The position numbers and the translations under genes were made by a program. The notes below the pieces were generated by a model. That model ran no database searches. It was given only the letters and a program-made list of their open reading frames with translations, and was not told where the DNA came from. A DNA stretch of 64,000 nt. It comes from Terriglobia bacterium (GTDB lineage Bacteria; Acidobacteriota; Terriglobia; 20CM-2-55-15). The DNA lies in the NCBI GenBank assembly GCA_965218585.1, contig CBDCLE010000001.1:32001-96000 (forward strand). Direction: 5' to 3'. Of this stretch, positions 3,594 through 63,753 are shown piece after piece (within the stretch, counting starts at the first letter, position 1; the number at the start of each line of letters is the position of its first letter).

Positions 3594-5190
3594 CTACGAT
3601 TTCAGATCGAAGCGGTCCAGGGTCATCACCTTCGTCCATGCCTCAACGAAGTCATGCACGAACTCTTCCTGCGCGTCGTCCGCGGCATAGAACTCAGCAA
3701 CAGCGCGCAGCTCAGAATTAGAACCAAAGATCAAGTCAACTGGAGTAGCTGTCCACTTGAGCTCGCCGGTGGCGCGATCAGAACCCTCGTAAATGCCCTC
3801 GGTGGATGACTCGGTCCACTGGGTTGACATGTCGATCAGGTTGACAAAGAAGTCGTTGCTCAGTGTGCCAGGACGGTCTGTGAACACGCCGTGAGCCGAG
3901 CCTCCAGCATTGGCATCCATAGCTCGCATGCCGCCGACAAGGGCCGCCATTTCAGGAATTGTCAGGTTCAGCAGAGCCGCCTTCTCCACCAGCATTTCCA
4001 CCGGAGATCGGGGGTTAACGCTCGCAAAGTAGTTGCGGAACCCATCCGCGGTCGGCTCAATCAGAGCAAAGGAGTCCACATCGGTCTGCTCCTCGGAGGC
4101 GTCCATGCGACCAGGTACAAAGGGCACATCCACGTCGACCCCGGCCCTTGCAGCCGCTTGCTCAATGGCTGCAGCACCGCCGAGAACGATCAGGTCGGCA
4201 AGAGAGATTCGCTTGTCGCCTGATTGCGCGCTGTTGAAATCACTCTGGATCTCCTCCAGGGCCTCCAACACGCGGCCCAGTTCAGCCGGATCGTTTGCAA
4301 CCCAATCATTCTGGGGCACGAGACGAATACGGCCGCCGTTGGCGCCACCGCGCATATCGGTCCCGCGGAAAGTGGATGCTGAGGCCCAGGCGGCCCTCAC
4401 TAATTCAGCGGCAGACAAACTGGAGTCAAGAATCTCAGCTTTCAGCTCGGCCGCATCCTGTGCATTGATCACGGTGTGATCAACTTCAGGAATGGGGTCT
4501 TGCCATAGGAATTCCTGGTCAGGCACCAGATCACCGAGGTAACGCGACGCCGGACCCATGTCGCGGTGAGTCAGCTTGAACCAGACCCGGGCGAAAGCGT
4601 CTTCGAACTCTTCCGGGTTCTCGAGCCAGCGCGAAGTGATCTCACGATAGGCCGGGTCCACCTTCAGTGCAAGGTCGGTGGTCAACATCATTGGCGCATG
4701 CCGTTCGGACGGATCGCGGGCATCCGGCACTAAATTCGATGCAGTACCGCCAGCGGGTTCCCACTGGATTGCACCGGCAGGGCTTCGAGTCTGCACCCAC
4801 TCATAGGCGTACAAATTTTCAAGGTAGTTATGGGTCCAGGCTGCGGGGTTGATCGTCCACGCACCTTCCAGGCCACTGGTGATCGTGTCGGCGCCATTGC
4901 CACTGCCGTAGCTGTTTTGCCAGCCCAGTCCTTGTGCTTCGATATTGCCAGCCTCGGGCTCAACACCTACGTACTGGGACGGATCAGCGGCGCCATGGGC
5001 TTTACCGAAGGTATGGCCACCCGCAATCAGCGCAGCCGTCTCTTCATCATTCATCGCCATGCGACCGAAAGCCTCACGTATGGCGTCAGCGGCCGCCTGC
5101 GGATCCGGGTTGCCGCCCGGGCCCTCAGGATTCACGTAAATCAGGCCCATCTGCGTCGCACCGAAAGGAGGATCCAGGGCTCCGTCCTCA
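3594..5190 (-). pseudogene. katG: Catalase-peroxidase, 5'-truncated
   Basis: [24 protein letters not shown] and [11 protein letters not shown] motifs; N-terminal part replaced by IS256 sequence at 5191. Confidence 0.93.
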
Positions 5191-5916
5191 TTCCCGCTGC
5201 CCGCTCTCACAGGCCAACAGCACTTTGCGCCCGTCTGACAAGGCTCCGATGATCACCAGCAATGCCGCTCGCTCTTTCGCGATCCCCGCTTTCACGTACA
5301 AGCCGTCTGCCCACTGGTACACGACCTCGAGGCCGGACAGGTCCTGCTGGACCCACTCGTCATACTCCAACTGCCAGGTCGATTTCAGTCGTTGGATCGA
5401 TGCTCGCGACAACGGAGCGCCAGCGCCAAGCAGTCCGCGCATGGCCTGCTCGAAGTCCCCTGTGGCCAGACCGTGGAGGTAGAGATCGGGAAGTAGCTCG
5501 CCCAGCTGTTTCGATTTCCGTCGAAAATACGGCAGGATCTGACTCTCGAACCGCTCGGCGGTGTTTCGAACCCGAGGTCGTCGAACCTCCATCGTACCAT
5601 TCATCATTGCGAAGCGTCGCGGTTTCCCGTGACCGTTCCGGTATCCTCGTCGATTCGGACTCCGCTCCGACTTTTCCCGACCCAGAAATTGAGTGACTTC
5701 GTCCTCGAGCAGCTCCTGTAGCCAGACTTGGACCCGGGATCGCGCCCAGTCCTCCAAACCTTCATACGCGTTCGTTGACGCCACTGATGCCGGTATGTTC
5801 TTCTTCTTCATGGGTGGTGTACCTTTCTCCCGATTGCTGCCGGGATTGCTTACGGTTTCGAATTCACCGAAAGCGTACACCGCCTTCTCTTTTTACACAC
5901 CGATTGGAACGACCTC
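5191..5916 (-). mobile_element. Partial IS256-family element (left end plus 5' half of transposase)
   Basis: Near-identical to the first ~725 bp of the element at 18463-19827, including TIR GAGGTCGTTCCAATCGGTGTGTAAAA. Confidence 0.92.
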
Positions 5917-5969
5917 CCGATAGCTGCCGACTATGCGAAGCATTCAGACTAACGACGCATAGGGGCAAT

Positions 5970-6267
5970 CAGGTACCGCCCGCTGAGCGGGCGGTATGAC
6001 GAAGGCCCCCGAGGGGGCCTATAAGGGCATCCTTGCTTCCAGCCTTCTGGCCATCACAATCCACCTGTCGCTTTCGCCCGATGACGTGGACGCCGAGTGA
6101 CACGACCGATGCGATACAATCCGTCGTGGGACTGGCACTGTCATTCGCCAATGACGGTCTCCCTCAATTCGCACGTGGTGGTTCGTTGATGGAGACCGTC
6201 TACCGAACTGCACGACGGGATGGTCGAACCTCTTCGAGTCTCACCGCCAGAGGCGGTGGCTTACCGT
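5970..6267 (-). mobile_element. IS200/IS605-like non-autonomous remnant
   Basis: Subterminal hairpins CACCGCC-aga-GGCGGTG (6242-6258), TACCGCCCGC-tga-GCGGGCGGTA (5974-5996) and AGGCCCCC/GGGGGCCT, plus a 10-bp stem covering the RBS (6153-6162/6191-6200). Confidence 0.55.
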
Positions 6268-7151: not shown

Positions 7152-8381
7152 ATGTTTCGCCTCGCCACCACTGATTTTCATCGCGCATCCCGGCTTGCAG
7201 CGTCTGCTTTTGCCGCAGTCCTGTTCGTGATGACTGCGGTTCCCGCCGTGCATGCCTCGCCGAATTTTCAAACGATCTTGCGGAAGGCCCCGGCCAGCGA
7301 GCACACCGGCGCCGACACGCTCACTTGGCTGCTCACCTTCACCGAGCCTGTGACGAATGTGGACCCGGCGGACTTTGTGGTGTCTGGCACGACGGCGGCG
7401 CTTGCACTGGAACCACTTGAGTTGGACGAGGAGGGGTGCAGCCAGCAATGGGATGCGACCCTGTCCGGCGGCGACCTCGAAGGCCTGACCGGGACGGTGA
7501 CGCTGACCGTTTCCGGTCAGCAAGGCATCTGGGGCTGCCTCGGCAACGGCGAAGAAATGACGCATCCCGGACCGAATGATACGAACCACAACACGTTCGT
7601 CGTAAACAACGACCCTGAGTCGTGCTCAGGCGGCGGCTATAACCCAACGCCGGCGGCGGTAGAGGTTACGGCAGTTCCCATCGTGGTCACGTCCACGACT
7701 GCGGACTACTTCGTGCTTTATGTCCGGCACGAGTTGGCCGCGGACACCAGCGTCGAGATTCCGGTGTTGGTGAAGCGGGGCGAAGCGGGCACGACCACCC
7801 TTGCCGAGAACGTGGCGGCGGTTCCCAAGGAGCGCTACCGGGTGGAGAAGTACCTCGCCGACGCGCCGGGCATGAACCCGGTGAACCCCGCCGCCCTCGA
7901 GATCAACGACATCGCCGTGGCCGTTCCCGATCGGGCGACGTTCGAGGAGCTCTCCCAGCTATTCCGGGGCGAGTTGCATCTCCAGTTCCTTTTGTTCGGC
8001 ATGAACACCGCACGACCGGGTGTGTACTTCATGAACACTGGGGTATGGCCAAGCCACGAGGGATTCCGGCGGGCCATCAACCTGGAGTGGAGCAAGGGCC
8101 TGGTCATGGAAACGATCATCTATGACCCGGATCTGGTGGCGCCCGATGGCAGTTCGGGGGTCTACCATTTCCAGGATCGGGATGCTCCCTTCGGCCTTGC
8201 GGCGCGTGCCTATACGGTGCTCGCCGCCAGCATGCCGCTGCTCGACGACAGCCTGGCCTTCCACATACCAAAAACATTACGCTCCCGTACTCCCAGACCG
8301 ACTTGCCTGCGTACAGGGAGTCCCGACTCAACCTGGTCTTCGACGAGGACGTTCTCCCCGATACCGACTTTCTGGCCTTGA
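7152..8381 (+). pseudogene. 5' part of a large secreted protein, frameshifted relative to 8303-11010
   Basis: Signal peptide, Ig-like LTFTEPVTNVDPADFVV segment; overlaps the downstream ORF out of frame. Confidence 0.55.
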
Positions 8382-11010
8382 ACACGGGGGAAGGGTACGG
8401 CTTCCTGCGGGTCATGGACCTGGAGGACCGTCCCAACCCCCTCGACGAGACCTCCATCGCCTCTCTCCTCGATGGCTACGTCCACTACGAGGTGACCGAG
8501 AACGGATGGACCCTGCGCGCAGCCACCCGCGCCGAAGTGGACGACCACTACGCGTCTTCCCGGCCCGCCCTGGAGCAGACCCCGCAACGCGACCTCTCGG
8601 TCACCACGATCACTCCCCTCAGTGAGATCGGCTTCGAGGACTGGACCGCGTTCGGCGTCAAGGCGGCCAACGTAGCCGTGCTGGGGACGCTGGGATTTCC
8701 AGCCGGGACCGTGCCCGACGGGTTCGCGATCCCGTTCTATTTCTACGACGAGTTCATGAAGGCCAACGGGTTCGATGACGACATCGAGGAGATGCTGGCC
8801 GACACCGATTTCCAGTCGGACTTCGAAACCCAGGATGACATGCTCGATGATCTGCGCGACGACATCAAGGACGCCGAGACGCCCGAGTGGATCATCGCGG
8901 CGCTGACCGAAATGAACGAGGGGTTTCCCGAGGGGATCAACCGTCGCTACCGGTCCAGCACCAACAACGAGGACCTGCCGGGGTTCAACGGCGCGGGCCT
9001 CTACGGCTCCAAGTCGCAGAGGCCCGATGAAGACGAGGAGGATCTCGCCAAGTCCCTCAAAGAGGTGTACGCCAGCCTGTGGAACTTCCGCGCCTTCATC
9101 GAACGCGACTTCCATCGCATCGACCACACGGCGGCAGCGATGGGGGTGCTGGTGCATCCCAGCTACCAGGACGAATTGGCCAACGGCGTCGCCGTCTCCT
9201 TCGATCCCGTCTCGGGCGGAGAAGGGTCGTACTACGTCAACACGCAGGTCGGCGAGGATCTGGTCACCAATCCGGATGCGCTTTCGGTGCCGGAAGAAAT
9301 TCTGTTGCGTCCGCTTGGAAGATTGGTCGTCCTTGGCACCTCCAACCAACTGCCGCCCGGGGAACTCATCATGAGCGGCGCTCAGATGGCTCAGTTGGGC
9401 GGCAGCCTCACGGTAATCGATGACCACTTCGCAGGGCTGTACAACCCCGCGCCCGGGGAACCGTTCGACATGGAAATCGAGTTCAAGATCACCAGCGAGA
9501 ATATCCTGGCGATCAAGCAGGCCCGCCCCTGGGTCTTCAGCACCGGCGTTGGTGCCGTGGGCGCGGACACAGGAGAAGGCGGCGGTGCCGGGGGCTCCGG
9601 AGGAGGAGGCAGCAGCGGTGGGGGTGGAGGCGGCAGCGGCGGTGGAGGTGGAGGTGGCGGTGGTGGCGGGCCGCGCCAAACGGTGCCGGACGCGCCCACA
9701 CACCTAATAGCGGAGGCCGCAGATGCGGCGGTAACGCTGACCTGGGACGCGCCGGAGGACGATGGCGGGTCCGCGATCACCGATTACGAGTACCGGATCG
9801 ACGGGAAGGGACGCTGGATATCGATTGGCTCCACCGACACCACCCATACGGTCACCGGGCTCGACAACGATACGATCTACACCTTCCAGGTACGGGCGGT
9901 GAACCGCATCGGCAGGAGCCAGCCTTCTTCGGACCCGGTGGAGGCGACGCCGAGGATGCCGGTGGCTCTGGACTTTACGCATTTCACCAATGGCGGCCTG
10001 ATCACGTCCGATCTGGTGCTGGTGAATGCGGGTGCCGCGCCGATCCGTCCCGTCCTCTACTTCTACGACCCGGAAGGCCATCTCATGGATCCCGAAGCGG
10101 TGGTGGACATCACGGGCGATCTGATGGTCACCGAAGACGGCAGCCTGACGGTCCAGACGGAGATGGAGCCGCTGGGCGAACTCACGATTTCAACCCACGG
10201 GCGAGGGGAGATGGTGAGCGGATCGGTGAAAGTAGTTGCGGACGGGCCGATCGGCGGGGGCCTACGCTTTGACATCCCCGACCTCGGGGTCGCCGGGGTG
10301 GGGGCCAGTTCACCCGTCCAGGATGCCCTCTTCCCGGCCCGCCGGCAGGCGGGAGGCATCCGCACGGCGGCGGCCATCCACAACCTGGGAGCGGAAGCGA
10401 TGGGGGTGAACTGCCAATTGATGAGCGGGGGCGTCGCGCTCGAAGAGGTGGCGATTCCCCTGGAGGCCAACGGGCAGACGGCCTGGTTCATCGAAGATGC
10501 GTTCACCGCGACCGATACGTCCGACTTCACAGGGTCGGTGCGCTGCACCGCGCCCGGGGAGGGACGGTTCACCGCAATTGCGGCGGAGATGGATGCCGCC
10601 AGGGGTATCTTCACCACGCTGCCGGTCGTGGAGGTGAACCGGGGCCGGGCCGAGGCGACCACTCTGGACTTTGCGCATTTCGCCAACGGGACCTGGATCA
10701 CCGATCTGGTGTTCGTGAACCTGGAGACCCGGCAGAGCGGTCCTCCCCTCACTCCCTTTCATACGGCCATCCTGCCAAGTCGTCCCGCTATTTATTTCTA
10801 CGACACCGAGGGCAACCCGATTGCCCCCGCATCGGTGGTGGACCTCACGGGCGATCTGATGGTCACCGAGGACGGGGCTCTGACGGTCCACACGGACATG
10901 GAGCCGCTGGGAGTGCTCACGATTTCGACCCACGGGCGCGGGGATCTGGTGAGCGGATCGGTGAAGGTGGTCTCCTCGGAGGGTCCCATCGGCGGGATGG
11001 CCGCCCCTCG
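8303..11010 (+). pseudogene. PEP/pyruvate-binding (PPDK_N-like) domain + Gly linker + fibronectin III + repeated beta domain; 3' end cut by an IS701 fragment
   Basis: GVKAAN, RYRSSTNNEDLPGFNGAGLY, DMEIEFK, IKQARP; FN3 PDAPT..WDAPEDDGGSAITDYEY..FQVRAVN; internal repeat ~9960-10260 vs ~10660-10995. Confidence 0.8.
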
Positions 11011-12467: not shown

Positions 12468-12697
12468 GTACGTTTCGACACTTCATCAGTGGTTCCCTCG
12501 CGGTCCTCTTCTTGCCTGTCACCTGACCCGATCATTGCCCGGCCTTTTCCTTCTGCGCTCACGACCACGGCTTTTGACCGCAGCCGCCGAAGGTGGTTTG
12601 AAACCCGCTCCTGCAAGCCGGTTCCGAGGGGCCCTCCCTCATCAGTTGAGTAGTTACGCACTTGAAAGCCTCTCGGCCTTCAGCGCTCGTGGCACAC
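12468..12697 (-). ncRNA. Group II intron 5' remnant (part of domain I)
   Basis: Begins GTGTGCC right after IS6 codon ATG (GYEAM|); contains GGCTGCGGTCAAAAGC and GAACCACTGATGAAGTGTCGAAA, which resemble group II domain I; no RT or DV/DVI. Confidence 0.65.
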
Positions 12698-44740: not shown

Positions 44741-47190
44741 CTAGAATCGCAAAGACGGCAGGTAATTGATGCCGCTAAACAATGGCTCCGCCCGATACAG
44801 CACGTTCTTTTCCAGGAGATTGATCCCGATGAAATAGAGCGTCCCATCGTCTCTGAGGTCGATGTCGAAGGGGCGCCAGGGACGGAACCGGTCACCGTCT
44901 TCGGTCGCTTCGCCAGTCCGGTAGACAATGCGCATCACCCCGTCGGAATTTCGTTCGACGATGACGGTGCCGCCGTTGATGTTCAGGATGAAGGCGATGT
45001 CGCCCCGCCGATTGACCTCAAAATCTCTGTCGATCCAGTAAATCTCTGCACCGTTGGGCATGAGGCTGCCGGTCTGAACGATCGGAATCCAGCCGGTGGG
45101 GCTGTATTCGGCAAGTATCGATCCTCCAACCGCGGTGTTAAACAGGGCATAGAATGTATTGCCCGCCCCGCGGAGGCCGGCAAACGTGGCCGGATATTCG
45201 ATGATGGTTTCCACACTGCTTCCATTGCGAAAGACGCCATCCCCGGCAGCGAAGTAAAGATCGCCTTGAGGATTTCGAGTAGCGCTGGAAAGATCGCCGC
45301 TTTGGGGCGAATCCCGATCCGTCTGTCCCGGAATCCACGAGCGTATCAAACCCGTTGAAGCCACTTCATGGATGGCCACCGGTTCGCCGCCGGTGTAAAT
45401 CATCGGGTTACCGTTGAGTGCTCCGGGAACAAAGCTGAGAAAATTCAGGTTTGCCGGTGCATTGATGAGGTCTCGGGCCTGGAATAGCGGTGTTGACGAG
45501 CCGGCTTCAACAACGACGAATCTGCTGTCGGTCGTTTCGATCCAGGCGTAAATCGTTCCGTTGGAGGTGATCACGGCATCCCGATGACTTCTCACACGTC
45601 CTTCTCCGACTGGGTCGTCCCATAACAGGACGGACGCGCTGATCGTGCCGTCCCAACGTATGAAACCACCCCCATCACCGACATCACCGTTAAAGACCAC
45701 TTCGCCCCTGTTGTTTATCGCATAGATCCTGTCGAAACTCCTGAGCTCTCCCGGACTCATCGTCCGAATTCCGGTAGACGGGCTATAGACGGCCGGAACT
45801 CGTCCCTGGTTGTCGATGTCGAGGTCAAAGGCCAGGGTTCCGTTCGGTGCTACGGCCAGCCCGCCGAACCGTCCCGCGACCGATCCATCGGGCAACGTGT
45901 CGCCCGTCATGATGATCTTCCGGGGTGCCGACAAGCCGTCTGCGCTGTAGAGCGCGTCCGTTCCCTGATAACTGACCCTGAAGTAGGCTGTTCCGGCCCC
46001 GTCCACTCCGAAATCGTATTCGATGCCGAAACCGTCAGGAAATTCTGCCAGGGGAAGCGTCACGCCCCATACAACCTGCAGTCGTCCGTCCGACAACTTG
46101 AAGATTCCATCCTGGTCCCAGGCTCGCCAGGCAAGTCGTAGGTGCCGCGAAAGACGATGTCTCCGCGATCGTTCAGGGAGTCACGATCGATAGTGAAGTT
46201 TCGAATCTGCTGGAAGCTGCCTTGTGTCTGCCCCTCCACAAGTACGATCCGAGTGCCTGACTGTGATGCCGTGACCAGGTGCGACGAATTGCCGCGCGTG
46301 CGGGTTTTCGTCAGAACCACACCATTATTGTTGATGGCTGTTCCATTAAAACCCCAGACATAACTCTGTGGAAACGCGCCCGGGGTTCCGGCTGAAGCCA
46401 ACACATCCCAGTTGCCGCCCTCGTAACGCAACAACCCCGCTGTCAGTCCGTCCAGTCCTGATATGAGGGCTATCTGGCCGGCATCGTTGACCGAGAGGCT
46501 TGGTTCCTGACCGGGGAGCAACTGGAAAGACTGAGTGAGAGTATCGGTCGCTACCAAACGCGTGAGACGGAATTCCTTACGCCGTTCGATGATGATTTCA
46601 GTAGAGACGGTAAGCCGCTCGGTCTGTCCTTGCTGGGCCCCCCAGAATGGAATACTGGCCTTGACCGTAACCCGCCCCTCTGCGACCGCATAAAAGAGCC
46701 CGGTGTTGCTGATCCAGGCAGTCCGGGTGTAGTACCCGTTGGGTCCGGACGTCTCCCACTCAAAGTTCACGTCGGATATTGGGGTACCGTTTGCGTCGAT
46801 CGCGCTCGCCTGAAGCTGGACGGTATCTCCTTCGGCGACGGCCCCCTCCACGTTGCTCAATTCGAGTCGCAGAGGAAGAACCTGGACGTTCATCGAAGTC
46901 CATCTGCCGTTAAGGCCGACAGATGCCCAGCTGTTTCCCACACCGAGACCCGTTACCAGACCAGTGCCGGAGATCGAGAGGATGCCCTCATCGGAAGAGT
47001 TCCAGTTGAAACCAGTATTGACGACGCCACTTCCGGTCAACCCGGCGGCCCGGAGCTGGAGTTGCTCGCCAACGATGAGTTCCGACCGATCGGCGCTCAA
47101 TATGACCTGACCGTCGAACTGCTGGCTTTCAGCGACATTCGTAAACAGGAAAACCAGGCCCAGAATCAGAAACAAGCGGTTCGGTCTCAT
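44741..47190 (-). pseudogene. Secreted Ig-like + repeat protein, frameshifted near 46100
   Basis: Signal peptide, WNSSDEGILSISGTGLVT (Big_2-like), repeated INNRG/LNDRG.I.F motifs over ORFs 46060-47190 and 44741-46096. Confidence 0.7.
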
Positions 47191-51659: not shown

Positions 51660-53273
51660 ATGGAAGAAGAGACGAAGATGAATTCTGCTGCAGCACTCAT
51701 GGTTCTGCTGGGCGAAGATCTTGCCTCGGAAATCGAGTTATTGTCAAAAGTGGTGTTTTGCCGATTGACTCAAGCGGCGGCCTGATCGACGTGGGTCACT
51801 TCGATTCCATCGTTGAATTTCACTCCAGTAATCACCTTGGGCAGATCATCGAATCCTCGTAATCGTCGCCAGTTCTTCTGAGCGCACTGTCCCAGTTTGA
51901 ACATCATGTGCAGCATGCCAACCCGCGTCAGGCAACCCCTGGATCGCTTGGTTCGGTGGCGAATGGTAGCAAAGGTCGACTCAATGGGATTGGTCGTTCG
52001 GATGCTCTGCCAGTGCTTGGCCGGGAAGTTGAAGAAGGCCAGCAGTTCTTCTTTGTCTTTCTGGAGGCAGCGAGTGGCTTTCGGATACTTCGGCTCATAG
52101 GTTTCAATGAACAGATCGAATGCCTTCTCGGCGTCTGCCTGTGTCTGAGCCCGCCAGATCGCGTGCAAAGCCTGTTTCGCCTTCGCCTGGGCCGACTTCG
52201 GGAGCCCGTTCAGTACGTTCATGGTCTTGTGCATCCAGCAACGTTGGTGACGTGTCTCGGGATAGATTTCCTCCAGTGCGGCCCAGAATCCCATCGCACC
52301 GTCTCCGATGGCCAACTTCGGGATATTCATCCCACGCGACTTCAGCTTTAACAAGACCTCGCGCCAACTCTGTGTCGATTCCCGGACACCGTCTTCGATT
52401 GCCAGAAAACGTTTCTCTCCGCGTTGATTCGCGCCGATCACCACCAGTGCGCACAACTTGGTTTCTTCGGCCCGCAGTCCGCTGTAGATACCGTCGGCCC
52501 AGACATAGACCCAGCGATCGGCATCCAATCGCTCCTCGCATCCCCGGCGGTACTGCTCGGCCCAGACCTGTTTCAACCGCGATACCGTGCTCGCCGACAG
52601 GCCCTGCGCCTGGGGTCCGACAAGAACTTTTAGAGCGTCACCCATCTCGCCGCTGGAGACGCCTTTCAAATACAACCACGGCACCGCTGCTTCCAGCGAT
52701 TTCGTTTTCCGAATGTAGGGAGGTACCAGGGCCGACCGGAACGTTACCGGGTCGCCAGTCTTCGCTCGGACTTTCGGGATCTGGACCGTTACCGGCCCCA
52801 AACCGGTCTGCAGTTCACGTTCAGGCAGATAACCGTTGCGCACCACCCCGGCGTTGCCCGTCTCGGTTCTCCGATCGCCGTGGTGGGATAGCAGTTCCGC
52901 CAATTCGGTTTCCACCGCGCGTTGGATCAGTTGCTGAGCTCCAACTCGTAGTAGCTCTGTTATCGGATCCTCAATCGTCTCTCGACCCTCCGGTCCATTC
53001 ACGTTACTCTTGCTCATAGTGGCGTATCTCCCTTGGTTGCTTTGAAGTCTGGTAAACAACAAATCAACCAGATACGCCGCTCTTCCTCAATCCCTCAAAC
53101 ACCAGATTCGGTTATAACTCTCGGAAATCATGAAACATCTGGACCAGAAAGAAGTTCAGCAGCTGTCGTCGGCGATTGATAACGTTGGCGGACAGGAAGA
53201 CAAGTATGCCGAAGAGTTAGACAAACTGTTGGATATGCACGACTTTCCGAAGACACCCCCTTCTGTTTCGTAA
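51660..53273 (+). pseudogene. Stand-alone FliG N-terminal-like protein (72 aa) split by IS256
   Basis: Rejoined: MEEETKMNSAAALMVLLGEDLASEI|MKHLDQKEVQQLSSAIDNV...VS*. Confidence 0.7.
51735..53120 (-). mobile_element. IS256-family element, transposase 51770-53017
   Basis: TIR GAGTTAT..GGTGTTT / AAACACC..ATAACTC; 9-bp TSD TCGGAAATC (51726-34, 53121-29); QRCWMHK, TTNPIES. Confidence 0.95.
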
Positions 53274-53428: not shown

Positions 53429-53516
53429 GGAACGCATAACGTGGAATCCGCAAGGCTGGAGTAAAGGACACTTGTTCCGCTCCCAGCCATGAGATTGCGG
53501 ACTTTTGGGTTCTTTC

Positions 53517-54824
53517 ATGACGACTTCGATTAATTTCGGTGGGCCGGGCGTTTTCGCTCAGACGCGTTACGTTCAACTGAACCGGCAGAGCAGTCCGACG
53601 CGTCTCGCGCCGACCTCGGTCAGCACCTCAAGGCCGGCATCGGTTTCTACGGTAGCCGACAGTATGAGAGGTCTCGCTTCGGCGGTGGCCGGTCTCGGTA
53701 CTCCGGGGGCTTTTCTGGGGACCACAGCCACGTCTTCCGATCGGGATACAGTCAGTGTGTCTTCTGGAAGCGGCGCTGCGGTCGGCGAGCACACTCTTGA
53801 AGTCACCGAGTTGGCCACCCGGCAAGTCACCAAGGCGACAACGGGATACACCAACACGACGGATGCGGTCGCCGACGGTGGTTCCATTTCTTTTTCGGTG
53901 AACGGATCTACGACAACTACGATCTCGATTTCATCTTCGACAACCCTTTCGGAACTAAAGGACCAGATCAACAACCAGAATTCAGGAGTCGTGGCATCGA
54001 TCACCAACGACGGCATAAACAACCGGCTCGTTGTTTCCAGCAGAGAGAGTGGGAAGGGTCAGGGATTCACCGTCAACAACTCCCTGACAATCACGTCCGG
54101 TACAGTGATTCAGTTCGAGACTGGACAGAGTTCGCTTTCAGGTAACACGCAGAATGCCGGGAATGCCCATTTCAAACTGAACGGAACCGAATTCAACAGA
54201 ACAGCAAATACCTTCAACGACGCGATTGAAGGTGTGACGTTGACGCTGGTTGGAGAGGGAACTACGTCGGTAACGGTTTCTTCCGACCACAACGGTGTCA
54301 GCAAAGAGGCGGATCGTTTCGTGAGGGAGTTCAACAAGCTTGACGCTGTGGCGCGAAGTATCGGAGGGGCGGAGTCGTCTTCAAGTGACAATGTCGCTCT
54401 CGGTCCGGCCCTGCGGCACGTCAGGACCGCGACACATGACGCGATCGAAGTATCCTATGAAGGCAGCTTCAAATCTCTTACCGAAGTTGGGTTTTCTTAT
54501 CGGAAGTCCGGAGAACTGAAACTGGACAAGGACAAGCTGAACGCTGTGTTGGGGTCGGATGCAGACGGTGTGCGTCAGCTGTTCGTTGGCGGTGCGGAGG
54601 GGAACGGAGTCTTTGCGGGCCTCGGCAAGAAGTTGGGTGCACACACCTCTGCCAACGGAACGATACGACCCGGCGATCCCATAAGCGACTACGTGCACCC
54701 GGGCACGGCAAGCGTGTCGGGTCTGGCACCGCCTTCTCGAGATCTGGCATACATCCAGAACGTTCTCCAGGGAGTACTCAAGGGATCGGCCGACGCACCC
54801 GCACGGGTCAACATTCGAGCATGA
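53517..54824 (+). CDS. fliD: FliD/HAP2-like flagellar cap protein with atypical termini
   Basis: LEVTELAT.Q, L.ELKDQINNQNSGV.ASI, N.FNDAIEGVTLTL, L.EVG...G.LKLD..KL. Confidence 0.75.
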   Translation: MTTSINFGGPGVFAQTRYVQLNRQSSPTRLAPTSVSTSRPASVSTVADSMRGLASAVAGLGTPGAFLGTTATSSDRDTVSVSSGSGAAVGEHTLEVTELATRQVTKATTGYTNTTDAVADGGSISFSVNGSTTTTISISSSTTLSELKDQINNQNSGVVASITNDGINNRLVVSSRESGKGQGFTVNNSLTITSGTVIQFETGQSSLSGNTQNAGNAHFKLNGTEFNRTANTFNDAIEGVTLTLVGEGTTSVTVSSDHNGVSKEADRFVREFNKLDAVARSIGGAESSSSDNVALGPALRHVRTATHDAIEVSYEGSFKSLTEVGFSYRKSGELKLDKDKLNAVLGSDADGVRQLFVGGAEGNGVFAGLGKKLGAHTSANGTIRPGDPISDYVHPGTASVSGLAPPSRDLAYIQNVLQGVLKGSADAPARVNIRA

Positions 54825-54828
54825 CTTC

Positions 54829-55224
54829 ATGATCAAGCTCGTGCTGTCCGACGAAGAAGTAGTTCGAATCGTGACGGCTTTTATCGACGAGAAATTTCCG
54901 AAGACTTGTCCGTCATGTGACCGGGTATACGACTCTCTGGCCGACTACCTTCAATCGACGATTCATGTGGGAAACCCAGTGTCTTACGATGCCGAGCTGG
55001 CTGACTGGGAGCCTTCGAAACCTCTGGGAACCTTCTCCTTGGCTAACTGTCAGTGCGGTACAACACTGTCGATCGGAACACAGGGCATGAAGCTTCGAAC
55101 GATGTGGCGGCTGCTACTCTGGGCACGGGTTGAGACCCAACGACAAGGGATTTGCTCTCAGGAACTCCTGGCTTCTCTCCGAAGGAAAATCGATGAGTAT
55201 GTTTTTTGTCGAGAAGCCTCATGA
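54829..55224 (+). CDS. Hypothetical Cys-motif (Zn-binding?) protein
   Basis: FPKTCPSC...NCQCGTTL; coupled to the fliD-like gene. Confidence 0.7.
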   Translation: MIKLVLSDEEVVRIVTAFIDEKFPKTCPSCDRVYDSLADYLQSTIHVGNPVSYDAELADWEPSKPLGTFSLANCQCGTTLSIGTQGMKLRTMWRLLLWARVETQRQGICSQELLASLRRKIDEYVFCREAS

Positions 55225-55271: not shown

Positions 55272-55314
55272 GCAAATCTTTCGCGTTGACTGCGTGTCGA
55301 AAAAGGAAGATATT
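55272..55314 (+). promoter_or_regulatory. sigma70-like promoter of candidate ncRNA copy A
   Basis: TTGACT-N17-GATATT; the 19 bp ending in TTGAC are identical to copy B. Confidence 0.55.
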
Positions 55315-55316
55315 AC

Positions 55317-55518
55317 GCCCTGCAATCGGGCTGGTTTGGCCGCAACCAAACAGGCAGTTGGCACGGTGTTGACGGGCGAAGTGTGGAGCAATCTGCAAGT
55401 CGCTCAAAAGCATCGAAAAAGAACTCATAGATCTGGGGTTTGGCCGACGGTCGAGTTTGGAGTATTCACCTCGCCATGGAGTAGTGGATGCCGCGCCGAC
55501 CGGCCCAATTGCTTTTTT
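55317..55518 (+). ncRNA. Candidate structured ncRNA, copy A
   Basis: 14-bp closing stem 55322-35/55499-512 followed by U6; internal stems covary with copy B. Confidence 0.7.
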
Positions 55519-55580
55519 GGGTTCTAAGGAACTGATTGCGCCGATGCTGCTGGTCACCAGCATCGGGTCCCGCCGACATA

Positions 55581-56528
55581 TTACCGCCAGTCATCAATGA
55601 TATAGACATCCGGCCGATTGTAGCTCCGCTCCGGCTGGGTCTCCATGGCAACGCCGATGAACCGGGTGTGGAAACCCGATCTCCTTAGCTGGCTGTAAGC
55701 GTTCCAGCGCCCCATGTTCATGCCCACCGAGAGAAGACTCAGATCCCGCTGGGCAGCTACGGATTCGCATGCCCGAAGGAGGCTTCCGAAGTAGTCTTCC
55801 TGGTCCGGTGAAGGACGGACTGCGCCGAACTTGACGTAGCAAGCACCGTCGCCCGCTTCAGTGTCGGATCCGCAATGACATATCGCAAACGCCACCAGCG
55901 TAGACCCGGCGTAGATCAGACATACTTCACCCAGTCTCTGCCGAAGTACTGCCTCGAGTTCCCGTTCAAGGGTCAGTCCGTCGTGTATCGTTCCCGTCAG
56001 TTCGCCACATGCCGAGATTGCGGCTTTTTGTGACTCTTCGGCCAGGCTGGACAGCTTGGTGAAGTCCGTTTCGATCTGTGCATTCACCTCCTTGCCCAGG
56101 ACCGGAGTCAGGTGGCCCGCGCGAAATCCGTACTTTTCGTAAAGGTGGATATGTTTCGGGCTTTCGGAGAAGGTCAACAGACCCCGGTGAGTGATGCCCC
56201 AGTCTTCAAAAAGAGACATCGTCTCTTCCAGAAGCATCTGCGCAACTTTCCGGTCCCAGTACTCCGGCAGGACGGTGATGGGTCCAAAGAAGCCAAACGA
56301 TCCCCAGTTGGCCGCAAAATTCGTGCCAACAAGCTTTCCGTTGTGTTCTGCAGCAATTGCCGAGGCCGGATCGGCTCTCCAACGGGTCGAAACCAGGTCA
56401 CGACCCGGGAAGAGAGCCCCGGGATCTTTTTCCTTGAGAAAAGTGGCGAATGCGATCCGAAGGATGCGGTTGGCCTCTCCAAGTTCGTGTTCTTCCAGTG
56501 CCCTTAGGCGTATTTCGTTGGTTGGCAT
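55581..56528 (-). CDS. GNAT-family N-acetyltransferase
   Basis: GPITVLPEYWDRKVAQMLL, HLYEKYGF. Confidence 0.85.
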   Translation of the reverse strand: MPTNEIRLRALEEHELGEANRILRIAFATFLKEKDPGALFPGRDLVSTRWRADPASAIAAEHNGKLVGTNFAANWGSFGFFGPITVLPEYWDRKVAQMLLEETMSLFEDWGITHRGLLTFSESPKHIHLYEKYGFRAGHLTPVLGKEVNAQIETDFTKLSSLAEESQKAAISACGELTGTIHDGLTLERELEAVLRQRLGEVCLIYAGSTLVAFAICHCGSDTEAGDGACYVKFGAVRPSPDQEDYFGSLLRACESVAAQRDLSLLSVGMNMGRWNAYSQLRRSGFHTRFIGVAMETQPERSYNRPDVYIIDDWR

Positions 56529-56539
56529 CCGAGGGCTGC

Positions 56540-56872
56540 TCAGTCTTGGGACGCGCTGCGCTTTGCCTGGTTCACCTGACCCACAATGCGCCCGACCCAG
56601 TCACCCATGTAAGCGATAGCTTCCTCCAGCGTCGGAAACCGGCTTGTTTCCGCTCCGTGGAAAACCGCACCGGGACTCTCGTGCACTTCCCACTCCTTGT
56701 CTTTGATGTCCGATCGTTGGAGCCTGTAGTAGAAGTATTCTTGACCTTTTACGGTTACAGAGACCATCGATCCGTCCTCGAGGTCGAAAGCGCAGTCAAA
56801 CGCACTTTCCGTCAACGGACTGTTGGCCAATATCCCGAGGATCGATTCTTTAGTTTCAGCCGTCGTTTTCAT
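56540..56872 (-). CDS. Hypothetical protein
   Basis: ORF co-oriented with neighbours, protein-like composition. Confidence 0.55.
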   Translation of the reverse strand: MKTTAETKESILGILANSPLTESAFDCAFDLEDGSMVSVTVKGQEYFYYRLQRSDIKDKEWEVHESPGAVFHGAETSRFPTLEEAIAYMGDWVGRIVGQVNQAKRSASQD

Positions 56873-56883
56873 GTTGGACAAAC

Positions 56884-57027
56884 TCAGGACTGGAGGAAGC
56901 GCAATCGGTAGAAACGAGTCTCACAATTGCGGCAACGGTAGGGAAGAAGAAAGAACAAGAGCATGCGTTCAGCCAGGTGCCGTCGAGAGCGTCTGACGCT
57001 TTCTGATTCACAGCGTGGGCACTGCAT
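56884..57027 (-). CDS. Small zinc-ribbon protein
   Basis: AGGAGG RBS; MQCPRC...RRSRR...PYRCRNCETRF. Confidence 0.7.
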   Translation of the reverse strand: MQCPRCESESVRRSRRHLAERMLLFFLLPYRCRNCETRFYRLRFLQS

Positions 57028-57199
57028 TGAAGGGCCTCCTGCCTTTCGTGACAACACTAACACAGGAAGAAGACATCTTCTCTCGTCGTGCAAAATGACA
57101 TGCGAGGCAGGAGGGTCTGTGAGTACTAGGTGCACTAGCATGAAACCCATTGTTTCCAGGTGGTGTCTCAGTTCTGTGCGTCTTCTGAGAATCGGTGGG

Positions 57200-57382
57200 C
57201 TAGTCGGACAGAAACAGGATCGACGCCAGGAAGGTGACTACGACGGCCAGAGCGAACACTACGTCGCCGGCTTTGTAGAATCTGAGAGCGCGGAGACCAA
57301 GGGCCTCCTGAATCGGACGACGGAATCCAAGGAGAACTAGCGCGACACTTAGAATCACCGACTCTATTGCTCCGAAACTCAT
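57200..57382 (-). CDS. Small two-TM membrane protein
   Basis: 60 aa with two hydrophobic segments. Confidence 0.5.
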   Translation of the reverse strand: MSFGAIESVILSVALVLLGFRRPIQEALGLRALRFYKAGDVVFALAVVVTFLASILFLSD

Positions 57383-57516
57383 GCAGTAACTATATCCGAC
57401 TCCGTCCTTTCAAGCTCAGGTCACCGGACAAATCGGTAGTGCGTCAGCCAAAGCGACGCACTACCTGTTTCCGAGCCTACTTCCGACTCCGATGCTGTTG
57501 TGATAACTATGCAAGG

Positions 57517-58014
57517 ATGAAATCGTGCTGCTTCTCCTGTGCCTGTGCAGTTTGGGCTCTGATTCTGCTCCCGACTCTGCCGTTGATCGAGCAGGAAGCA
57601 CGTTTTTCTTCGATTGCAGAAGGTTTTTCATCTGATGAAGGACCCATCGAAGTAGGCTATCGTGCGTTCACGGCCCCCCAATTGCAGGAAATGACATCCG
57701 GCGGCCTCCGAGTCGAGTCGATCGACGTGCTTCCGAGAGTCTTCCGTTTACAGGTTGGACAGAGACGATCCTTGAGAGAACTCCGTGTGACTGCACGAGA
57801 CTCCCAGGGTGCGATAATCGTACGAATTCCGTTTTCGGTAGGGCTTGAGGATGTCGACCCGGAAATAGTCAGCGTTGAATCGCTCAGAGTAAACGGCCAT
57901 GAGATAGAAGGAACCCGAGCTGGACAGAGCAGGTTGCGGTTTATGGCGGCGATTCCAAGAGACGATGGGACCTCGGCCGTGTCGATGATTCGAATTGTTG
58001 TTACCGACGAGTAG
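57517..58014 (+). CDS. Hypothetical exported protein (Ig-like?)
   Basis: Hydrophobic N-terminus, beta-strand-rich. Confidence 0.5.
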   Translation: MKSCCFSCACAVWALILLPTLPLIEQEARFSSIAEGFSSDEGPIEVGYRAFTAPQLQEMTSGGLRVESIDVLPRVFRLQVGQRRSLRELRVTARDSQGAIIVRIPFSVGLEDVDPEIVSVESLRVNGHEIEGTRAGQSRLRFMAAIPRDDGTSAVSMIRIVVTDE

Positions 58015-58054
58015 CCACGTCCCCGCGCATCGGAAGTAACACGAGAGACAAGAT

Positions 58055-59230
58055 CATGAAACTGGTCGACAGGATGTCCCAAATGGGAACCGAATCTGCG
58101 TTCGAAGTTCTGGCGAAGGCTCAGGCCCTTGAAGCACAGGGCCGGAACGTGATCCATCTGGAAGTCGGGCAGCCCGATTTTCCGACCCCCCCCATGTAGT
58201 GGAAGCCGGAAAGAAGGCGTTGGATGACGGTGAGACCAAGTACGGGCCGCCAGCCGGGTTTCCCGAGTTCCGTGAAAGGATTGCGGCGTATGTTTCCCAT
58301 ACGCGCGGCGTCAGCCTTGATGCGGAAAACGTCTGCGTGGTCCCGGGTGCCAAGCCGGTGCTGTTTTTTACGATGATCGCGCTTCTGGAACAGGGCGACG
58401 AGGTTATTTATCCGGATCCTGGATTCCCGATCTACGGTTCCATGATTCGTTTTCTGGGAGCGACGCCGGTTCCTGTCCCGTTGCTCGAAAGTGACGGTTT
58501 CTCGTTCGATCTGGACGTTTTCGCCGATCGACTGTCTGAGAAGACGAAGATGGTGATTTTGAACTCCCCGGACAATCCAACCGGTGATGTCATTCCCAAA
58601 GAGAATCTGCAGTCGATCGCAGGCCTGCTTCGCGACCGGGACGTGATGGTTCTGAGTGATGAAATTTACTCCCGAATCTTCTACGGTCCCGAACCCACGT
58701 CGATTGCCAGCTGTGAAGGGATGTTGGAAAAAACGATTATTCTCGATGGGTTTTCCAAAACTTATTCGATGACCGGCTGGCGTCTGGGTTATGGCGTCAT
58801 GCCTCGGTGGTTGGCCGAAGCTGTAGCGAAATTGATGGTCAATTCCAACTCGTGCACAGCCAGCTTCACGCAGCGTGCCGAGATTGCGGCGCTTGAAGGT
58901 CCGCAGGATTCCGTTACTCGGATGGTCGGCGAGTTTCTTCGCCGCCGCGATGCGATCGTGAAGGGACTGGGGGATATATCCGGTTTTCGGTGTTCGACGC
59001 CTGCAGGTGCCTTTTACGCGTTCCCGAACGTCGCGGGGACGGGTATTGCTTCGAAGGAACTTGCGGAGACGATCCTGACCGAAGCCGGTGTGGCATCGGT
59101 TAGTGGCGATTCTTTTGGCCGGCATGGCGCCGGATACCTGCGTTTCAGTTATGCCAACTCGTTAGAGAATATTCTGGAAGCGACCGAAAGAATCCGGAAG
59201 ATAGCAGATCGCTGGGGGAATCAGGGGTAG
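58055..59230 (+). pseudogene. Class I/II (aspartate-type) aminotransferase, frameshift in poly-C ~58187-58194
   Basis: LEVGQPDF, NSPDNPTG, SDEIY, GFSKTYSMTGWRLGY. Confidence 0.88.
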
Positions 59231-59243
59231 ATTCGAGTCCAAC

Positions 59244-59440
59244 AAAAAATGCGATCGGATCGACCCTCGCTGCGTTCCCTCAACCATGGTGTTTGGGAAT
59301 GCCCAAGTCAGTCATCGGCCAAACCCTCGATCGTTGGGCTCTTTTTCAACGCCTGACCGGCCTGCGGGTTGCCCCGCATACCGCTCGGATATCGTGCCGA
59401 AAGTCGTCTTGGTTGCTACCAATCGACCCAATCGCGAGAG
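59244..59440 (-). ncRNA. Candidate structured ncRNA, copy B
   Basis: Closing stem 59422-35/59251-64 followed by U6; same stem order as copy A. Confidence 0.7.
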
Positions 59441-59442
59441 CA

Positions 59443-59485
59443 ATCATCTGATTTTTTTCCTGCACGGTCAACGCGAAAGATTTGC
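59443..59485 (-). promoter_or_regulatory. sigma70-like promoter of candidate ncRNA copy B
   Basis: TTGACC-N17-GATGAT on the minus strand. Confidence 0.55.
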
Positions 59486-59710
59486 ACTATTCGTGTGGCC
59501 TGAAGCGTGGCGTTTTGGTCCAAAAAAAGGGGCCCTTGAAGGCCCCTTTTCCAGTCTCTCCCGATCCCTGCTCAGCGACTTCGCATGAGGGCATCGTCCC
59601 TGCCGTTGATGTTCGGGTGTTTTCTCCTATTTGTTTCTATTCAGAGTTGTGCGAAAGTCGAAAAACAGTCTATAGCGAAAATGTACATGTCAGACCGGGA
59701 GAATAGTCAA

Positions 59711-60676
59711 GTGTCTTCAAAAACGTTACGCACAGCGCTCGCATCCTTCGTACTGCTCGTCGCAACGCCGGTTGTTAACGGGCAGAATATGACAGTCACA
59801 CTCCTGGGTACCGGTTCGCCTCCACCGTTGATGGAGCGCTTCGGCCCGAGCATCCTGGTCGAAGCAGGAGACGAAAAATTGGTCTTTGACGTAGGGCGTG
59901 GCGTCACCCAGCGGATTTTTCAACTCGGGATGACACTCAGGGAGGTGACGGGTGTATTCCTCACTCACTTTCATTCCGACCACACTGTAGGGATCCCGGA
60001 TCTCTGGCTGACAGGGTGGCTATCACCCCGGTTCGGTGGCCGCATGACACCCTTTGAGATCTGGGGCCCCGAGGGAACCGAAGCCATGATGGCGGCTCTC
60101 GAAGAAGCCTACGCAGCCGATATCCGCATCCGAATCGCGGACCAGAACTACCTTCCCGAAGGTGTTGCGATTGTTTCTGAAGATATCGCTGAGGGTGTCG
60201 TGTTCGAAAGAAATGGTGTGCGTGTGACGGCGTTTGATGTGGATCATGGCGAACTGATCAAGCCTGCGATGGGTTATCGGGTGGATTACGGCGAGCGTTC
60301 GGTGGTCATGTCCGGAGACACAAGATTTAGTGAGAACCTGATTCGATTCGCAGAGGGGGCCGATGTCATCGTTCACGAGGTCGCCGCAGCGAGCGAAGCT
60401 TTGTTGGCGAAATCCGAAGGCGAGCGGCTCATCCTTGCACATCACACCACACCCGAGGAAGCTGGGACGGTTTTCGACCGGGTCACCCCTCGACTCGCAG
60501 TTTATTCCCACTTTGCTCTGAGGGGCGACTCTGAAATCGCGCCACCCACTCTCGACGATGTTGTCGCGATGACCCGGACGAACTATGACGGACCTCTTGA
60601 AATAGGAGAAGACCTGATGCGTATTGAAATAGGCGACGCTGTTGAGACTTACAGGTTCGCGCCTGCCTCCCCGTAG
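59711..60676 (+). CDS. RNase Z/AtsA-like MBL-fold hydrolase, secreted (start uncertain)
   Basis: LLGTGSP, THFHSDH, SGDT, HHTT. Confidence 0.85.
   Translation: MSSKTLRTALASFVLLVATPVVNGQNMTVTLLGTGSPPPLMERFGPSILVEAGDEKLVFDVGRGVTQRIFQLGMTLREVTGVFLTHFHSDHTVGIPDLWLTGWLSPRFGGRMTPFEIWGPEGTEAMMAALEEAYAADIRIRIADQNYLPEGVAIVSEDIAEGVVFERNGVRVTAFDVDHGELIKPAMGYRVDYGERSVVMSGDTRFSENLIRFAEGADVIVHEVAAASEALLAKSEGERLILAHHTTPEEAGTVFDRVTPRLAVYSHFALRGDSEIAPPTLDDVVAMTRTNYDGPLEIGEDLMRIEIGDAVETYRFAPASP

Positions 60677-62419: not shown

Positions 62420-63753
<1,334 letters not shown>

Follow-up and report, generated by a model that had tools for sequence, protein, structure and literature searches.

The stretch of DNA analysed here, the window, is 64,000 nucleotides long and comes from a Terriglobia bacterium (GenBank assembly GCA_965218585.1, contig CBDCLE010000001.1, positions 32,001 to 96,000 of the forward strand). 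Between its protein-coding genes lie two copies, A and B, of an element that would specify a structured non-coding RNA (ncRNA): copy A on the plus strand, downstream of fliD, and copy B on the minus strand, next to an aminotransferase gene. The coordinates of both copies and of their parts are collected in Table 1. A sequence-only reading of the window had taken the two as homologous but much diverged, and alignment agrees: they are diverged paralogues, 69% identical over 176 nt (BLAST), whose bodies align through the shared blocks GCAACCAA, GGCACG, GAAAAAG, GATC, GGGTTTGGCCGA and CCATGG, the same blocks that the reading had listed as invariant. Its count of two is right for the window, while the genome holds three; copy C lies on another contig (G000:C10:99092-99289, minus strand), beyond the window, and is 74% identical to copy A, copy-to-copy identity within the source genome being 69-74%. 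Each of the three copies stands behind an identical 19-mer, GCAAATCTTTCGCGTTGAC, which in the window occupies 55272-55290 (plus) and 59467-59485 (minus). The reading had reported this 19-mer ahead of copies A and B, and was equally correct about a -10-like hexamer 17 nt after the -35 hexamer (GATATT ending at 55314, GATGAT ending at 59443) and about the run of six T residues at the 3' end of each copy (55513-55518 in copy A; 59244-59249, minus strand, in copy B). Low-depth contigs from sequencing runs X1-X4 confirm the DNA sequence, one X1 contig covering 55375-59665 with 0 differences.

Table 1. Positions of the RNA copies, of their putative promoter elements and structural parts, and of the long variants (window numbering, unless a locus or contig is named).
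Feature	Position	Strand	Remarks
Upstream box of copy A, GCAAATCTTTCGCG	55272..55285	+	14 nt, abutting -35; probable regulator-binding site
Promoter of copy A	55286..55314	+	sigma-70-type; TTGACT, 17-nt spacer, GATATT; 9/12 matches in promoter scan
RNA body of copy A, type I	55319..55518	+	P1; P3-P4 arm bearing P5-P6 (GCAA loop) and P7; P8-P10 arm; U6
Covariance-model scores, copy A	55319..55518	+	178.6 bits (R1), 160.9 bits (R2)
P1 closing stem, copy A	55322-55334 with 55500-55512	+	13 bp; weaker extension follows
P1 5' strand, GCAAUCGGGCUGG	55322..55334	+	helix 1: changes on both sides in 15/18 pairs
P1 3' strand, CCGGCCCAAUUGC, then U6	55500..55518	+	predicted termination site and 3' end
GCAA tetraloop on P6, copy A	55388..55391	+	GNRA in most members; UUGC/UCGC in a subgroup
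L7 palindrome AGAUCU, copy A	55429..55434	+	in 9-nt loop AU-AGAUCU-G
L10 palindrome CCAUGG, copy A	55474..55479	+	tip of P8-P10 arm
Upstream box of copy B, same as in copy A	59472..59485	-	19-mer identity
Promoter of copy B	59443..59471	-	TTGACC, 17-nt spacer, GATGAT
RNA body of copy B, type II	59243..59438	-	CGAUCG loop, GGGG-GCAA-CCCC hairpin, U6 at 59244-59249
Covariance-model scores, copy B	59243..59438	-	187.4 bits (R1), 175.5 bits (R2)
GCAA tetraloop on P6, copy B	59369..59372	-	copy B fold
L7 palindrome CGAUCG, copy B	59328..59333	-	in 9-nt loop AA-CGAUCG-A
L10 palindrome CCAUGG, copy B	59284..59289	-	tip of P8-P10 arm
Long variants, genome G029	L092 (G029:C7:419000-431000) 8072-8378 and 4192-4692	-	3 and 7 hairpin modules
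Long variants, genome G029, contig positions	C7 ~427072-427378 and ~423191-423691
Long variants, genome G026	L093 (G026:C39) 4303-4555 and 8045-8504	+

The consensus fold is branched and Y-shaped, with P1 joining both ends of the molecule and carrying two arms. Following P1, two invariant G-C pairs are formed from the GC of GCAACCAA. The first arm is made up of P3, in which CCAA pairs with a distant 3' CUUGG, and of P4, and it opens into a three-way junction with P5-P6 and P7. The P5-P6 branch is capped by GCAA, P6 being replaced or extended in some members, and the P7 branch is entered via the invariant junction UGAAAAAGA and ends in a 9-nt loop containing AGAUCU or CGAUCG. The second arm consists of P8-P10 and has CCAUGG at its tip. 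Junction nucleotides, UGAAAAAGA and GGCACG among them, do not vary even though they are unpaired. In most members a U-run follows directly after the 3' strand of P1, and the many G-U pairs fix which strand is transcribed.

Two covariance models were used, R1 from the three source-genome copies and R2 from 26 members, and in all 30 distinct homologues are available, from 13 genomes and 3 metagenome contigs. In the model-fitted alignment of these 30 sequences, 87.9% of the cells are standard pairs, versus 32-46% when the partners are slid by 1-3 columns; changes on both sides occur in 56 of the 71 pairs, and none of 500 shuffles reaches any of five measures. The 26-sequence alignment presents the same covariation picture, with 71 conserved pairs in 10 helices. 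Because the alignment used for counting pairs had been fitted to the model, the test was redone without it, and MAFFT with RNAalifold on 12 diverse members returns the same helices, with 59 pairs of which 34 are compensatory. Single-sequence folding gives minimum free energy (MFE) z-scores of -4.1 for copy A and -4.5 for copy B, with 0 of 200 dinucleotide shuffles folding equally well, and the range across the members examined is -4.1 to -6.4. The compensatory change that the sequence-only reading had noticed between two copies is thus found throughout the 30 homologues. RNAalifold and family-wide covariation also recover its closing stem, its GUUGGC/GCCGAC stem, its GCAA-capped hairpin and its AACUC/GGGUU and GUAUUCAC/GUGGAUGC stems. 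From its stem inventory helix P5 was missing, and its UUGG..GCAA.CCAA hairpin has to be abandoned: this is 71.6% paired, 107 of 500 shuffles score as high, and the CCAA pairs with the distant CUUGG (helix 3, 83% paired, with changes on both sides in six of eight pairs). We have very little doubt that the RNA constitutes a real structured ncRNA family.

A mutual-information scan for tertiary pairs had as its top signals outside the helices the outer pair of L7 with the closing pair of the P6 loop; these were rejected, as they follow the division into two subtypes and ancestry confounds them. An X2 contig from a related strain (depth ~3, anecdotal) differs from the window at several copy B positions between 59350 and 59457. 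Mapped on the copy B fold, these changes convert GCAA to GCGA (still GNRA), an A-C mismatch in P5 to G-C, and a U-G pair to U-A.

Each gene has a putative promoter of the sigma-70 type, and the 19-mer comprises the 14-nt box and the TTGAC of its -35 hexamer. No further site exists in the window even when up to three mismatches are allowed (chance expectation 0.01), nor does the 19-mer occur elsewhere in the 4.55-Mb source genome, where the next best site has three mismatches (C14:65689-65707), faces the 3' end of an antisense open reading frame (ORF) and was judged a chance match. With at most two mismatches, the 19-mer is present within 70 nt upstream of 21 of the 27 copies, which come from four genera, and 12 of these sites match exactly; throughout the family the same distance separates the -35 hexamer from the first base of P1. 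The six copies in which no box is found within 70 nt are one with an IS30-like insertion, two long variants, two truncated copies and one without a recognisable box. In five other genomes, every site with no more than one mismatch precedes an RNA of the same family. A box scan of a species-genome collection gave 48 loci: the RNA follows none of the 36 that are from other phyla and 10 of the 12 from Acidobacteriota, the remaining two lying at locus edges. In metagenomes, 29 loci were found, three of them with the RNA (L108, L114 and L115), and viral contigs contained no box loci. The 14-nt box is better conserved than the RNA itself, the RNA bodies being ~70% identical. Being so specific and abutting the -35 hexamer, the box is most simply explained as the site of a dedicated regulator, which it probably is; its extreme conservation and its restriction to this RNA would point to a dedicated signal as well. 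Transcription of copy A would start at about 55320.

The arrangement resembles that of RsmY/RsmZ with the GacA box and of Qrr with LuxO, in which paralogous small RNA (sRNA) genes each stand behind a conserved, near-exclusive box. As in those systems, there are several paralogues per genome behind a box found almost only there; unlike them, the box sequence is unrelated, GGA loops are not conserved and the RNA is far more structured. No link to Csr/Rsm or to Hfq was found.

Several individual loci bear on the box and the promoter. In L074 (a contig of genome G021, 4373-5973), an IS30-like transposase gene (402 aa, HTH_38 and rve domains, minus strand) lies between the box (4373-4391) and the RNA (5772-5973), a natural promoter disruption of one copy; the orthologous RNA locus in the sister genome G013 is intact. 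L125 (G017:C1:5227900-5228900) has a two-mismatch box at ~706-724 (minus strand), in surroundings that match those upstream of the third copy in the sister genome G007, but the RNA itself is missing. The sequence is different immediately beyond the promoter spacer, and a stretch of ~38 nt recurs ~300 nt downstream, which suggests that an RNA copy was lost or replaced. In L126 (G007:C1:44200-45200), a two-mismatch box at 44883-44901 falls within the coding sequence of a histidine kinase and specifies its conserved ...EPFFRVD... motif, and such codons may account for many of the box matches in unrelated phyla. The promoter spacer of genus g1, TCGAAAAAGGAAG (55296-55308), resembles the invariant RNA junction AUCGAAAAAGAAC (55415-55423); the resemblance might be accidental, or be due to an A-tract effect or to a protein site common to both. 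Just upstream of the copy B promoter, at 59521-59552, a GGGGCC-CTTGAA-GGCCCC hairpin with an A-run on one side and a T-run on the other resembles a bidirectional terminator that would insulate the RNA gene from a metallo-beta-lactamase-fold gene (59585-60676).

A covariance-model search of the source genome and its relatives had been recommended by the sequence-only reading, and it was fruitful: R2 matches are present in 13 of 35 genomes of the same taxonomic family (source genome included), with 1-7 matches per positive genome. The order-level search comprised these same 35 genomes. By genus, and not counting the source genome (which belongs to g1), the RNA is found in 3 of 4 genomes of g1, 2 of 5 of g3, 5 of 5 of g4 and 2 of 2 of g10, and in 0 of 9 of g7 and 0 of 9 of the remaining six genera together. 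R2 has no match in 130 genomes from other families of the class or in 150 other genomes of the phylum. The genome sets are samples containing many incomplete metagenome-assembled genomes, so that a genome without a match may still carry the RNA. A weak partial match outside the family, in G090 (R1, expectation (E) value 0.0046), was treated as noise, R2 giving 0 of 20 there. No cultured representative is among the loci carrying the RNA. Within the genomes searched, the RNA does not occur outside a single lineage, of family rank, among the uncultured Terriglobia (Acidobacteriota).

The sequence-only reading had recognised no known family, and neither do the databases. When the whole window was compared with Rfam 15 at the gathering score, no match fell on either copy, the matches obtained being group II intron D1-D4 (12521-12640, minus strand, 109.9 bits) and the ALIL pseudoknot (63305-63421, minus strand, 100.6 bits), which we take to be the frameshift element of IS3-type transposases. 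At E ≤ 10, 11 weak matches are found between 55200 and 59600, none overlapping copy A or B, and the long variants have no match at E ≤ 1. 6S RNA (RF00013) is likewise stand-alone, similar in length and has its ends paired in a long closing stem, but it is a rod with a central bubble, while the RNA described here is a branched Y; RF00013 matches C2:205929-206114 (57.7 bits, over the cut-off) and not these loci. A genuine signal recognition particle RNA gene is located elsewhere in the source genome. Acido-1 (RF01686) and Acido-Lenti-1 (RF01687), described in the cited part of PMC2864571, are likewise orphan acidobacterial RNA candidates without a cis-regulatory role that came out of comparative genomics, and their models do not match the copies even at E ≤ 10.

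The RNA might have been described outside Rfam, for instance as the 'Solibacter-1' motif of Weinberg et al. 2010, which would remove its novelty and not its function. That motif is given from Solibacter usitatus, without an Rfam accession, in the section of PMC2864571 consulted, and some of the genomes that carry the RNA are labelled 'uncultured Solibacteraceae'. However, Table 1 of the same source rates the motif as a doubtful RNA ('?') and gives it for S. usitatus only, whereas our RNA occurs in 0 of the 130 class genomes outside its own family; full-text literature searches on structured RNAs in Acidobacteria, Terriglobia and Solibacter found nothing of this kind, Solibacter-1 being compared by description only. 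We consider such an identity quite improbable, and the RNA family is likely not yet described. It would be a well-supported new entry for Rfam, from a poorly studied uncultured soil lineage.

Three other identities, a small protein gene, a cis-regulatory leader or riboswitch, and the end of a mobile element, can be considered together. Stop-free frames of ~65 codons exist in some members, but none stays open throughout the 26 members, and in L015 and L018 every one of the six frames is interrupted by stops. Six pairs of members were compared, each pair differing by 4-10 indels, none a multiple of three; the reading had likewise seen no ORF common to the two copies. Copy A comes right after fliD and a 131-aa ORF, but for copies A and B alike the gene that comes next is read from the other strand, no downstream gene is conserved and the neighbours differ between loci. 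With promoter and U-run present and no neighbouring gene shared across loci, the elements look like the stand-alone units with promoters of their own that the reading had proposed. It had itself raised the possibility of an insertion sequence (IS) end or a miniature inverted-repeat transposable element (MITE), and copy C does adjoin an IS6/IS240-type transposase. There are, however, only 1-7 matches per genome, the copies are 69-74% identical rather than nearly so, orthologues are syntenic and no similar sequence is present in plasmid and phage collections or viral contigs; this divergence, synteny and lack of plasmid or phage matches argue against the end of an IS or MITE, no search having been aimed specifically at target-site duplications or terminal inverted repeats. 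We regard any of these three identities as very improbable.

The two arms of the RNA end in palindromic loops. L7 is built of two bases, a 6-nt palindrome and one purine, and is palindromic in all 30 distinct sequences (AGAUCU in 14, CGAUCG in 15, CGGCCG in 1). L10 is palindromic in 27 of the 30 (CCAUGG in 21, CCGCGG in 3, CUAG/ACUAGU in 3). The central dinucleotide switches between AU and GC in L7 and between AU, GC and UA in L10. In the monomer, the predicted unpaired probability is 0.81 for L7 and 0.78 for L10, against 0.33 as an average for the whole molecule, and the cognate loop-loop self-duplexes have predicted (nearest-neighbour) energies of -6.8 to -13.3 kcal/mol. The source genome contains both types of L7, AGAUCU in copies A and C and CGAUCG in copy B. 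As adjacent nucleotides are unable to pair with each other within one loop, the maintenance of self-complementarity points to pairing between two molecules. Kissing of the loop tips had been offered as speculation in the sequence-only reading and has gained support, both loops staying palindromic while their sequence changes.

Symmetric kissing loops have been seen by electron cryo-microscopy in OLE and GOLLD (Kretsch et al. 2025, PMC12286853), and in the part of that paper relied on here the switching of OLE L9.3 between GGCC, GAUC and AGCU is taken as evidence for them. By the sequence criterion given there, an exposed self-complementary core whose adjacent central nucleotides covary yet remain palindromic, L7 and L10 both qualify, with GAUC/GGCC in L7 and CAUG/CGCG/CUAG in L10 corresponding to the covarying core of OLE L9.3.

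In the dimerization initiation site (DIS) of human immunodeficiency virus type 1 (HIV-1), the kissing loop has nine nucleotides, with two 5' bases, a 6-nt palindrome and a 3' purine, and its palindromes are subtype-specific. L7 has the same 9-nt layout, AA-CGAUCG-A or AU-AGAUCU-G, and likewise subtype-specific palindromes. The DIS belongs to a viral genome, whereas here a chromosomal bacterial ncRNA carries two such loops, through which dimerization is only predicted.

Exposed loops could also serve as seeds of a base-pairing sRNA acting in trans, for example CCAUGG with start-codon regions reading CCAUGG. A stand-alone, multi-copy gene with its own promoter and U-run would fit such a role, as would conserved loops predicted to be single-stranded and the fact that CCAUGG holds an AUG and is its own complement. 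However, 71 conserved pairs in 10 helices are far more elaborate than is typical of seed-bearing sRNAs, and a seed needs no palindrome, yet palindromy survives sequence change in both loops; we think a seed function distinctly unlikely. Self-association through the loops, which the palindromes suggest, we consider to stand a little short of an even chance.

Considerable size variation is observed in the family. Two genomes of genus g4 contain long variants of ~307 and ~501 nt that retain P1, L7 (CGAUCG) and L10 (ACUAGU) and have three and seven GCAA-capped hairpins, spaced with a 51-nt period, in a large multiloop (MFE z -5.9 and -6.4). The repeated hairpins are nearly identical, with the sequence GCGGGGCAACUCGC. 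In genome G029 the long variants are located behind a variant box, GCGCAAATTTTTCTGTATTGACA, which is further upstream in the one inspected, and their genes flank that of an 831-aa WD40-repeat protein. In one member, from a metagenome, the tip of P6 is enlarged by an insertion of 67 nt. As the long variants and this insertion show, the P5-P6 arm is a module that is multiplied, extended or replaced within the family. At the other extreme, a mini relative of ~100 nt (L127, G029:C7:502600-503600, 571-674, minus strand) has a two-mismatch box and keeps P1 and the U-run, with its interior much reduced. L035 and L038 (G026:C30:44108-44298 and C39:579201-579391) are identical to each other and without the 5' third and the U-run, a box-like GCGCAAATCTTCGC adjoining P5 with nothing in between, and have the appearance of truncated pseudogenes in a duplicated segment.

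The repeated module could mean that the RNA is a monomeric protein-binding molecule, a sponge or ribonucleoprotein scaffold, whose GNRA-capped hairpin or conserved junctions a protein recognises. With their three to seven GCGGGGCAACUCGC hairpins, the long variants would then titrate more protein in the manner of CsrB/RsmZ, and self-association would be compatible with this. Multi-copy genes whose box is of the regulator type and is confined to these RNAs would be expected of such a system, the same hairpin module occurs up to seven times, and UGAAAAAGA and GGCACG are invariant without being paired. On the other hand, the loci have no linked gene for a candidate protein, and the GGA typical of Csr/Rsm targets is not conserved as a repeated loop motif: the only loop GGA is that of CCAUGGA, and the base after CCAUGG is A, C, U or G. 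A protein site would moreover be expected to keep its sequence, yet the loops change while remaining self-complementary. A monomeric protein-binding role therefore seems unlikely to us.

The explanation we favour is that of an undescribed family of stand-alone structured ncRNAs that would be regulator-controlled, self-associating and trans-acting. A signal would cause a dedicated regulator to bind the box and the RNA to be made, the regulon being essentially the RNA alone. The closing stem P1, pairing end to end, would stabilise the RNA, which would act in trans and not on an adjoining gene. Symmetric kissing of L7 with L7' and of L10 with L10' between molecules would give dimers and, since each molecule would have two separate symmetric interfaces, symmetry would favour assemblies beyond the simple dimer, in the form of larger closed or chain-like particles made of RNA only. 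The GNRA arms, three to seven in the long variants, would add contacts, and the assembly might act as a scaffold or as a sequestering particle. Because of the steps in this scheme that are deduced, from transcription to cellular role, we consider the explanation as a whole evenly balanced between right and wrong. Its most specific form, a small (~190 nt) self-assembling RNA class in which two kissing interfaces build RNA-only rings, cages or filaments, with AGAUCU and CGAUCG coexisting, up to seven GNRA arms and a dedicated regulator, is put forward tentatively and may well not hold.

Natural RNA-only quaternary assemblies have been recognised recently, in few families, all of them large. In the parts of PMC12286853 and of the review PMC12990946 drawn on here, OLE, ROOL, GOLLD and ARRPOF are 'ornate' bacterial RNAs forming RNA-only homo-oligomers; like them, our RNA is an elaborately folded bacterial ncRNA whose function is not known, and as in OLE, ROOL and GOLLD, GNRA loops are available for A-minor contacts. 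It is smaller, ~190 nt versus 255-830 nt for those four according to the same sources, and comes from a different phylum. Other differences with OLE, ROOL and GOLLD are the lack of homology (no Rfam match at E ≤ 10), the dedicated conserved promoter box and the lack of a phage or plasmid link, and for our RNA oligomerisation is a prediction. If the loops do mediate self-association, the RNA would be a compact example with natural size variants and two coexisting loop specificities; it would provide an easy in vitro system, and self-assembling RNAs would be more widespread, and able to be smaller, than known. We regard the RNA as a new family among the orphan ornate bacterial ncRNAs, and its place among the self-assembling RNAs is plausible but unproven.

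A number of points weigh against this explanation. Transcription, the RNA ends and oligomerisation are all deduced from sequence. The homologues are close kin, from four genera and mostly one genome per species, and pairs were counted on model-fitted alignments. A clear U-run is missing in L019, L020, L030, L025 and L026, and the L10 palindrome is broken by one base in L020, L037 and L034. Independent palindrome-preserving events are few, about four or five, and the switch of the outer L7 positions between A..U and C..G could equally reflect a pair formed within one molecule that closes a GAUC tetraloop. Other subtype-specific positions covary with the L7 subtype, so that shared ancestry accounts for part of the palindrome signal. 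No regulator or partner protein was identified, the neighbouring genes offering no candidate linked to the loci.

Across 27 loci the flanking ORFs form local synteny groups only, and their Pfam families are unrelated. The neighbours include fliD and genes for a GNAT acetyltransferase, an aminotransferase, CBS-domain, creatininase-like, DUF4177 and WD40 proteins and an alpha/beta hydrolase, with no common theme. In the window, the class I/II aminotransferase gene (58057-59230, plus strand) is interrupted by a frameshift at eight consecutive C residues (58186-58193): 45 N-terminal codons starting at the ATG at 58057 end in a TAG at 58195-58197, and the rest forms an ORF at 58199-59230 (Pfam Aminotran_1_2). 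One low-depth X1 contig spans the run unchanged, while X3 and X4 contigs break exactly there; either the homopolymer was misassembled or the gene is a true pseudogene. Upstream of copy A, a Mutator-family transposase gene (51770-53062, minus strand) is followed by fliD, which encodes the flagellar cap (53505-54824, plus strand) and precedes copy A in three species of the genus. Directly ahead of copy A lies the 131-aa ORF (54829-55224, plus strand), which has no Pfam match and presumably sits where fliS often lies.

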